Shown: positions 46,951-48,534 of the stretch, in pieces
How positions within the stretch are numbered: the first letter of the stretch is position 1
Layout of the letters: every line of letters starts with the position of its first letter
Assembly: GCA_029262275.1 (NCBI GenBank)
Contig: JAJCZS010000009.1
Location: 4,284 to 68,283 of the forward strand
DNA from: Deltaproteobacteria bacterium
GTDB taxonomy: Bacteria > Desulfobacterota_D > UBA1144 > Nemesobacterales > UBA2774
Direction of reading: 5' to 3'
Length of the DNA stretch: 64,000 nucleotides
Position numbers and translations under genes: made by a program
Notes under the pieces: generated by a model
Database searches by the model: none
What the model was told of the DNA's origin: nothing
Seen by the model: only the letters and a program-made list of their open reading frames with translations

Positions 46951-48534
46951 TTGAACAGAGCTGTCATTTATGCAAGAGTAAGTACAGAGAGACAAAGAGA
47001 GAAACACACAATTGATTCTCAGCTTTCAGTTTTACCTGAAGTTATTAATCAGAAAGGTTATAAACAAACTTTAGTACCTTATATTGATGATGGTATTTCA
47101 GGTGAAACTATTGATGAAAGACCAGCCATGATAAAGCTCTTAGAGGATGCTGAAAGTGGTTTATTTGATGCAGTATTCGTGGTTGATATAGATAGGCTTA
47201 CAAGAGCCAGAAAGTCTATTGACTGGGAATTTATAAAAGACTCTCTCCGTAAGGGTAACGTAAAGGTTGTTACACCTAGTCAAGAATATGATTTCGAAGA
47301 TGAAGACCAAGAATTTATGTCTGACTTATTCAGTACTATTTCAGGTTACGAGAAAAAGAAAATAATTCGTAGGTTGATGAGAGGCAAAAAAGAGAAAGCC
47401 AAACAAGGAAAGTTCTTTGGTGGGAAATCACCCTACGGTTATACATACGATGAAGAAACTAAAGAATATGAAATAGTCAAAGAAGAAGCAAAAGTAGTGA
47501 AACAGATATTTGAATTATATTTACAAGGCTATGGTGTTAAGCAAATACCTGAACAACTAGATAAGTTAGGCATACCAACCCCTACTCTTACTAAAGGCTA
47601 TAAAACCAAAAATGATAATAAGAATAAATGGGCTGGTTCTACAATAACAAGAATCCTTAAAAATAAAGCTTATGCAGGTGAGTTTATACGTTGGACTAAT
47701 AAAAGGTTTAATAGAACATCCATGACTATAAGACAAGATGATGAATGGATTATTACTGATATACCAAAAATTATAAGCATAGAGACTTTTGAAAATACTC
47801 AAGAAGTTTTAAAGAATCGTAGAGTACTATCTAAGAGAAATTCTAAAAGAGAATATTTACTAAGTGGTCTCATTCACTGTGAATCATGCGGATGTAAAAT
47901 GATAGGTGAATGTAGTAGAGGCTCTAAAGAACTTCTTTACTATGTATGTCATAACGGTAGACGTAAAACTTTAGATATACCTTGCCCCATAAGGAGTATA
48001 AGAGCTGAGGAAATCGAAAATGCTGTATGGCAAGAGATAAAGTATCTTCTGAAAACACCTGAACTTCTAAAGAAAGCAATACTGGAATCTAAAAACACAG
48101 ATCATTCAAATCACAAAATAGAAGATTTAAGAGATAGACTCAAAGATAAAGAGGATGAAGAAGAAAGACTGTTAGACCTTTATCAACATGGTTCTATCGA
48201 CAGAGAGAAACTAAATAATAGAATTGAAAAGCTAAACAAAGAAAAAACACACATTAAGGATCGAATAGAAGCTCTTATTGAAGAGAATAAAATTGATACA
48301 AGGTTGATGAGTATAAATGAACTTAAATTCGAATTAGAAGCCGATATTGACTCATTTAAATATCAAGAGAAAAGAAATGTACTTGAAATACTTTTAACTG
48401 GGTCAAATGAAGTAGGAGTGTTTGTTAGCTCAGACTATTCAGTAGAAATTCATGGATTAATAGATTTTTCAAAATTCAATAATAACAGCAAGTTAGATAA
48501 ATGTAGTGGTATTAAGAACACATCATACTCATGA
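46951..48534 (+). CDS. large serine recombinase (integrase)
   Basis: YARVST catalytic motif, [27 protein letters not shown] Zn ribbon, coiled coil; TTG start after GGGAG (track starts at 46909). Confidence 0.95.

Follow-up and report, generated by a model that had tools for sequence, protein, structure and literature searches.

Serine integrases integrate their elements unaided and excise them only with a recombination directionality factor (RDF), and the control of this directionality is a central question both for biology and for the use of these enzymes in genome engineering. In archaeal tyrosine integrases of the SSV type, the attachment site attP lies inside int, and integration splits the gene, removing a large essential part of it. 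In Tn4451 (the TnpX promoter) and ICEclc (Pcirc), the circle junction reportedly assembles a promoter, so that the excised form expresses the recombinase differently. Here we describe a 64,000-nt stretch of contig JAJCZS010000009.1 (GCA_029262275.1; hereafter, the window), in which an island has been placed in comM by a large serine recombinase (LSR) through a 2-bp CT crossover, and in which the attP of the element lies inside the integrase gene itself. The closest described system is Mx8, in which, according to passages of PMC6070905, attP lies within a tyrosine int, and integration makes a new 3′ end and alters the activity of the enzyme, an arrangement termed a molecular switch (Tojo et al., 1996; Magrini et al., 1999). 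In the integration-dependent immunity phages, such as BPs and Brujita, attP also lies inside a coding sequence; as outlined in parts of PMC9262239 and PMC8092301, integration removes 20–35 C-terminal residues and the junction supplies the stop (Broussard et al., 2013). In the same phages, C-terminal tags are described as controlling protein stability, and the integrase also carries a degradation tag (passages of PMC9262239). The extreme C-terminus of phiC31 integrase contacts the RDF (bioRxiv 10.1101/2025.05.02.651858). As regards the target, passages of the catalogue of Durrant et al. (bioRxiv 10.1101/2021.11.05.467528) report that 12.4% of predicted site-specific LSRs target a gene family annotated as ATP-dependent protease, which we take to be ComM/YifB, and the passages searched do not discuss an attP inside the LSR open reading frame (ORF) or the isoforms that would result. 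Our literature search found no paper describing an attP inside an LSR gene.

Coordinates below are window positions unless a locus is named. The comM gene is split by the insert: according to Pfam, the N-terminal part stretches up to 22964 and the AAA+ part begins again at 48530. When the flanks were fused at the CT dinucleotide shared by attL and attR, an uninterrupted ComM of 509 aa was obtained, with the junction after ...GGHNLL. In the integrated state, the comM 5′ fragment continues into the P′ arm of attP as TMWS, followed by a stop. The features that define the two forms of the integrase are listed below.

22312–22964, forward strand: comM 5′ fragment (Pfam ChlI and Mg_chelatase N-terminus, a ChlI/Lon-like N-domain); fusion to 48530 onward restores ComM.
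22963–22964, forward strand: crossover dinucleotide CT in attL; the sole identity between attL and attR, and the symmetry centre of the rebuilt attP.
22964–23053, forward strand: tail-coding segment, 29 codons (LRCGLKTTYFYPFIAIVQESIRLRSRPKY) plus TAG; in frame +1 relative to comM, and in the integrase frame solely across the circle junction.
22965–22986, forward strand: P′ arm of attP, TACGATGTGGTCTTAAAACCAC; a 19/22 inverted-repeat match to the P arm.
46951–48534, forward strand: LSR, integrated form; 527 aa from the TTG at 46951 or 541 aa from the TTG at 46909, ending ...GIKNTSYS and a stop.
48506–48527, forward strand: P arm of attP, inside the integrase ORF, encoding ..SGIKNTSY.
48528–48529, forward strand: crossover dinucleotide CT in attR, located by joining the flanks.
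48530–49406, forward strand: comM 3′ fragment, the AAA+ module from the Walker A motif (Pfam Mg_chelatase and Mg_chelatase_C).

The integrase ORF passes the crossover and ends one codon later at a TGA that overlaps the comM ATG (..TAC TCA TGA). The stop of the integrated integrase is host DNA, because the conserved ...CTC-ATG-AT... of comM (Leu-Met-Ile codons) provides the TGA. When 48529 was joined to 22965, as in the circle, 29 codons were added after ...NTSY, and the frame then closed at the TAG at 23051–23053. Counted from the core CT, the integrated stop is therefore 1 codon away and the rebuilt stop 29 codons away. A first-pass annotation of this DNA had stated that the integrase frame spans the CT core and ends ...KNTSY-S on comM sequence, and its coordinates and sequences proved correct; its claim that P joined to P′ yields an in-frame tail that is not in the comM frame was reproduced by joining the flanks. 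The rebuilt attP is GTGGTATTAAGAACACATCATA-CT-TACGATGTGGTCTTAAAACCAC, 46 bp in length (22 + 2 + 22), and outside the 22-nt arms its symmetry falls to background (8–9/22). The idea that the tail region mirrors the P side was also considered and was rejected, as no symmetry extends beyond the arms.

Because attP lies inside the integrase ORF, the circle and the integrated forms must encode different C-termini. On the evidence of the reading frames, the integrated gene encodes a tail-less enzyme (...NTSY-S), and the circle, or any intact attP, encodes the same enzyme with 29 additional residues. The tail was also considered as an independent ORF in attL, and this was rejected because the tail frame has no consistent start codon there. 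Translation of the tail is thus possible only when an ORF reads into it through the junction. Within the ORF, homologues that diverge by 20–33% over the upstream 126 nt had only 1–4 differences in 24 nt at the P arm, which was nearly invariant at every codon position. This pattern indicates a constraint at the DNA level, unlike the signature of the tail.

A second left end within the island allowed the tail to be compared with an independent copy, the sole other copy genome-wide.

38295–38372, forward strand: second left-end remnant, comprising 11 nt from the outer P′ arm, followed by the tail LKTTHFYPFLASIQERVRLRSRPRH and its TAG.

Compared with 22976–23053, this segment is identical at 64 of 78 nt without indels, and the similarity ends at the common TAG. 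The conserved stretch opens with 11 nt (CTTAAAACCAC) that belong to the outer P′ arm and thus to a DNA site. The second tail is identical to the first at 17 of 25 residues, with four purely synonymous codons. The residue identity, the four synonymous changes, the lack of indels and the common TAG had been given by the first-pass annotation and were reproduced, as was its remark that the replacements are mostly conservative: when the same 14 substitutions were placed at random, only 0.8% of the placements reached the BLOSUM62 score of the pair (p about 0.008). Furthermore, the tail frame is the sole frame of six that is open in both window copies (copy A, 22964–23053; copy B, 38295–38372). Taken alone, the comparison of copies A and B is no more than suggestive of a tail selected as protein.

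Further left ends were sought via truncated N-terminal fragments of ComM, and the contigs were then read in the integrase frame (comM frame +1). Many database proteins of ∼220 aa end right after GGHNxL, which marks this codon as an insertion hot spot. The following tails, all from other assemblies, were compared with those of the window.

Left end L081 (TARA): tail LRCGNKTTILYPFFYS.., which runs to the contig end.
Left end L083: tail LHYRHNTGIYFPFYVKLSNTKKS, then a stop.
Left end L084/L085: tail LHYRHYNGIYFPFYVKLRKT, then a stop.
Left end G026 (another genus of the same family): tail LRYSQKSTIVFPFFCSIKKHSC, then a stop.

In all four, [YF]-P-F is kept at tail codons 11–13, and the position of the motif is unchanged, even though identity among the P′ arms is down to about 50%. 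For the Pro of the motif, four different codons are used (CCC, CCC, CCT, CCG, CCA, and CCC). Mean pairwise differences at codon positions 1/2/3 were 0.00/0.20/0.64 in the motif and 0.21/0.37/0.60 over codons 9–14. Beyond the arm, the differences at the three positions were 5/2/7 between A and B, 3/3/6 between A and L081, and 0/0/5 between L083 and L084 (summed, 8/5/18), so that all five of the sites that differ between L083 and L084 are third positions. The hydrophobic/aromatic core of the tails reads x-T-[YHI]-[FLYV]-[YF]-P-F-hydrophobic, and the end beyond it is rich in K and R. The third-position excess, together with a motif kept through different Pro codons, favours selection on the protein. 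The earlier proposal that the tail is conserved as coding sequence therefore holds for the window pair and the four further left ends, but it does not extend to more distant comM-targeting elements, whose tails are unrelated.

The integrase contains the Pfam domains Resolvase (PF00239), Recombinase (PF07508) and Zn_ribbon_recom (PF13408), and the catalytic Ser11 and Arg57, Arg82 and Arg85 are conserved among 65 homologues. The combination of a serine-resolvase, recombinase and zinc-ribbon architecture with a coiled-coil insert, and of short dyad att sites without a long attP/attB core, is that of an LSR. In the AlphaFold2 (AF2) model, the mean predicted local distance difference test score (pLDDT) was 84.7, the chain was folded to about residue 505, and a long helical insert (residues 384–462) lay between the zinc-ribbon strands. 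The integrated ORF, with its folded part ending at about residue 505 of 527, retains all the domains of a complete recombinase. The site attP occupies a sequence-tolerant, probably unstructured C-terminal extension beyond all the folded domains. If the tail is functional, it would be a short linear motif rather than a domain. Separately, within the 3′ region of the gene, 48457–48488 (TTAATAGATTTTTCAAAATTCAATAATAACAG, 32 nt) showed 0 differences from L001 and 1–2 from L003 and L031, while the neighbouring codons differ by 20–33%. A constraint on the DNA or RNA is therefore suggested at 40–70 nt upstream of the core, where an accessory site or an outward promoter might lie.

Several results weigh against a selected tail, and most of them would be expected if the arrangement were a harmless by-product, in which attP occupies a tolerant disordered extension, the read-through product of the circle is inert, and the similarity of the left ends reflects shared ancestry. 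Residues 507–555, which comprise 20 P-arm-encoded residues and the tail, were modelled by AF2 as disordered and undocked (pLDDT 30–37), from an alignment that had no tail rows. The plain amino-acid identity of copies A and B was unremarkable (p = 0.33), and the tail statistics rest on short segments (8–25 codons) from few lineages. Among distant comM-targeting elements, the rebuilt tail of G061 was an unrelated peptide of ∼58 aa, and the left ends L087 and L093, situated at the same codon of comM, had tails of 8 aa and of 25 aa without the motif, respectively. The tail is also kept in two islands that have no integrase, L083/L086 and G026, where it is either a relic or serves something else.

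The database searches bear on the same question. When the C-terminal 150 residues of the rebuilt protein were compared with 5.8 billion clustered proteins, close homologues were rare: six proteins were found, and all six (61–100% identical over the C-terminal query region) stop 0–5 residues after ..NTSY. Such ends identify them all as integrated forms, and the 0–5 residues that follow NTSY are arbitrary and evidently tolerated. No tail-bearing protein was found among the 5.8 billion clustered proteins, and in 1.8 billion representatives scanned with HMMER, no alignment went past residue 532 of 555. Neither a metagenome scan for the arm pattern, which returned mostly integrase ends, nor the viral contigs yielded a circle-form contig; the viral contigs contained no close relative and no P′ pattern, and the species genomes of 61 relatives contained none above 35% identity.

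An inert by-product leaves unexplained why third positions take the largest share of the changes (18, against 8 and 5), why the Pro residue survives four codon choices, and why the motif stays at the same codons next to strongly diverged P′ arms. The conservative replacements between A and B, and a common stop position at which their similarity ends, also argue against it. On balance, we regard the by-product explanation as rather unlikely. We lean, with moderate confidence, towards the reading that there are two real isoforms and that this clade translates the tail and maintains it by selection.

A different possibility is that the conserved stretch acts as DNA or RNA, either as a terminator or insulator against read-through from the truncated comM or as an accessory binding site beside attP, the open frame being incidental. 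A terminator-like hairpin, GTGGT-CTTAAA-ACCAC followed by TTATTTTT, does occur at 22971–22996, but it is weak (5 bp), is formed from the P′ arm itself, and is kept neither in L083/L084 and G026 nor in copy B, which is without its 5′ half. The motif region is T-rich in all copies, and the retention of the tail in integrase-less islands would also suit a nucleic-acid element; however, the variation has a period of three, with the invariant bases at codon positions 1 and 2. The conservation between A and B reaches 67 nt beyond the arm and ends exactly at the in-frame stop, and the P side has no mirror-image conservation. This explanation is improbable.

The second left end also bears on how the island was assembled. 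It is without the inner P′ arm and the core, and it adjoins an IS3-family element that separates two blocks of cargo.

37010–38292, reverse strand: IS3-family element; orfA 37936–38214, orfB 37067–37909; ends of the TG...CA type.
23054–37009: cargo segment A, in which the ORF list contains cytochrome P460 genes, a sigma54 activator, an ECF sigma, a TetR and others, and no recombinase.
38373–46950: cargo segment B, with an IPTL-CTERM glycine-rich protein, an umuD/umuC-like pair, a Schlafen/AlbA-ATPase, and a 334-aa ORF with a DUF6788-like N-terminus.

The insert is a composite island of ∼25.5 kb in comM, arranged as cargo A, IS3, cargo B and integrase, and the GC content is 36.7% in segment A, 32.7% in segment B and 39.2% in the flanks. 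No target duplication was found around the IS3 element (flanks TCA versus CCC; 37007–37012 and 38290–38297), and the absence of a direct repeat points to an adjacent deletion or an IS-mediated rearrangement. An IS-associated event probably removed the integrase and the right end of segment A. The second copy is a truncated junction, the internal joint of an apparent stack of two units, segment A without an integrase and segment B with one. It is a point against a two-isoform gene that, in such a tandem or composite island, the surviving P arm and the P′ arm at 22965 may derive from two sister units; the frame argument is unaffected, because both P′ copies carry the tail.

The stack raises the possibility of cassette docking, in which P′ plus tail would be the standard left end of integrase-less cassettes mobilised in trans to form stacks at comM, and the tail would keep the ORF closed in arrays. 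Each cassette would then bring a spare integrase 3′ end, and an integrase upstream of an internal junction would stay full length. The order of the island, an integrase-less segment A and then an integrase-bearing segment B, each beginning with P′ and the tail, is consistent with this, as are G026 and L083/L086, in which islands with this left end but no integrase occupy the same position in comM. The internal junction of the window has been destroyed by IS3, however, and no full-length internal integrase is visible. The retention of a particular peptide motif would also be unexplained unless the peptide itself matters. LSRs are not known to recombine attP with attL or attR without other factors, which counts further against docking, and we consider it highly improbable.

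Returning to two isoforms with a translated and selected tail, this reading implies that the enzyme performing attP × attB differs from the enzyme made by the resident island. Integration cuts the integrase ORF, comM supplies the stop, and the resident island would make the ...NTSY-S enzyme. Excision, or an intact attP, restores the 29 codons, and the circle-form enzyme, which is needed for attP × attB integration, would carry the tail as a short linear motif confined to that form. Sequences recognised by proteases or chaperones typically have a hydrophobic/aromatic core with basic residues on its flanks. The tail might accordingly be a recognition tag for a protease or chaperone, comparable to the C-terminal tags of the integrases of integration-dependent mycobacteriophages; alternatively, it might contact a surface near the zinc ribbon or the RDF. 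With either option, the enzyme from the integrated copy would differ in behaviour from that of the circle, in the manner of IntP/IntX of Mx8. By likeness to that pair, a regulatory role of the isoforms is plausible, and control of the enzyme level or of partner binding is the role that we favour, tentatively and at well below even odds. The proposal of the first-pass annotation that the isoforms could set directionality, stability or activity without a separate RDF is speculative. It is doubtful, though conceivable, that this integrase clade senses its own topological state through its gene, with a tail motif that alters stability or the response to a directionality factor; integration and excision competence would then be assigned to two proteins from one gene.

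No RDF was identified, and a DUF6788-like ORF just upstream of the integrase is conserved. In the window, this ORF (45930–46934) lies directly upstream of the integrase; its first ∼90 aa are 70% identical to a DUF6788 protein in the same position in L002 (9711–10001), and this part is fused to another ∼240 aa. It is a possible candidate for an integrase partner. At the other end of the gene, the integrase stop and the start codon of the comM 3′ fragment share bases in an ATGA (48531–48534), and the overlap is identical in L034 (G061). Because of this overlap, the 291-aa AAA+ part of ComM could be made by translational coupling to the integrase. The integrase of that locus (P0007, L034/G061), the next nearest of those that target comM, is 46% identical to that of the window and also has a CT-centred symmetric attP.

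The integrase-less islands differ in content. In L083/L086, the DNA next to attR consists of a methyltransferase gene and ∼100 nt without coding sequence, and the cargo (L086, 7329–19750) resembles segment A of the window in having cytochrome P460, ECF sigma and sigma54-activator genes, at the same comM codon and with a related left end. The G026 island (L089; G026:C6, 465900–472400), also at the same comM codon, is 6.1 kb in length and contains only two very large ORFs, of 1252 and 654 aa.

Among related elements, the crossover dinucleotides CT, TT or AT match the local Leu or Ile codon of comM. In L001 (1699–1730) and L028 (9980–10020), a 76–78% identical integrase faces the other way, its junction being with the comM 5′ part (...GGHNLITMCS and a stop). 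We infer that the crossover dinucleotide there is AT, which is palindromic, so that insertion is possible in either orientation. Members of a different LSR family (26–28% identical) use another position in comM, ∼20 codons downstream and after ...RRLPxIL, in several genomes of the same genus and family (G006:C4, 909172–926149; G014:C1, 861955–895667; and G010:C5). In L003 (5900–5965), the integrase–attR junction is followed by only 60 nt of comM and then by another element. A solitary 34-nt P′ arm with the first tail codons (CCTTACGATGTGGTCTTAAAACCACTCATTTTTT) occurs in L030 (12125–12165, reverse strand), in intergenic DNA of an unrelated contig with no comM or integrase nearby. An Ignavibacteriales metagenome-assembled genome (JBLNAE01; L037–L040 and L048) contains five integrase paralogues, 49–58% identical, on different contigs. 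These end within 0–14 residues of ..GIEN/T.. (one continues for ∼40), each beside different downstream DNA, and constitute one family with diversified targets in a single genome. Their P′ ends were not found with a mismatch pattern, which was too noisy.

If the two-isoform reading is true, one gene gives different proteins from the circle and from the integrated element, and the element would have a switch coded by its topology. The passages on Mx8 document one for a tyrosine integrase; for serine integrases, none was found as far as the literature was searched. In practical terms, any LSR catalogue compiled from integrated elements would systematically list the truncated isoform. Even if the tail is inert, an annotation rule follows, namely that the integrase stop codon of these elements is host DNA, and the present case is a minimal-tail instance with a conserved motif.

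In relation to the known systems, the integrase lies at the edge of an island in this gene, like the elements in the passages of Durrant et al. In Tn4451 and ICEclc the promoter changes, whereas here the coding sequence itself does; and unlike the SSV type, all the catalytic and DNA-binding domains stay intact. The first-pass annotation had cited the repressor of BPs as the precedent. It is apt in that attP lies in a coding sequence, but it is less close than Mx8, whose attP lies in the integrase gene itself (passages of PMC6070905). Moreover, in contrast to the BPs type, the gene that is cut here encodes an integrase rather than a repressor, the enzyme is an LSR rather than a tyrosine integrase, and the tail ends in RPKY or RPRH rather than in an ssrA-like -AA. 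As with IntP/IntX of Mx8, the attP crossover is inside the integrase ORF, integration replaces the 3′ end, and the integrated form is a complete recombinase. The prophage form of Mx8 is described in those passages as active but altered in behaviour, whereas the two forms considered here are predicted from sequence. Mx8 has a tyrosine recombinase and a tRNA-linked attB; the present element has an LSR, a 2-bp crossover in comM and a 29-aa tail. The integrase thus resembles Mx8 in gene geometry and, because it is a serine recombinase, is not a member of the Mx8 family.

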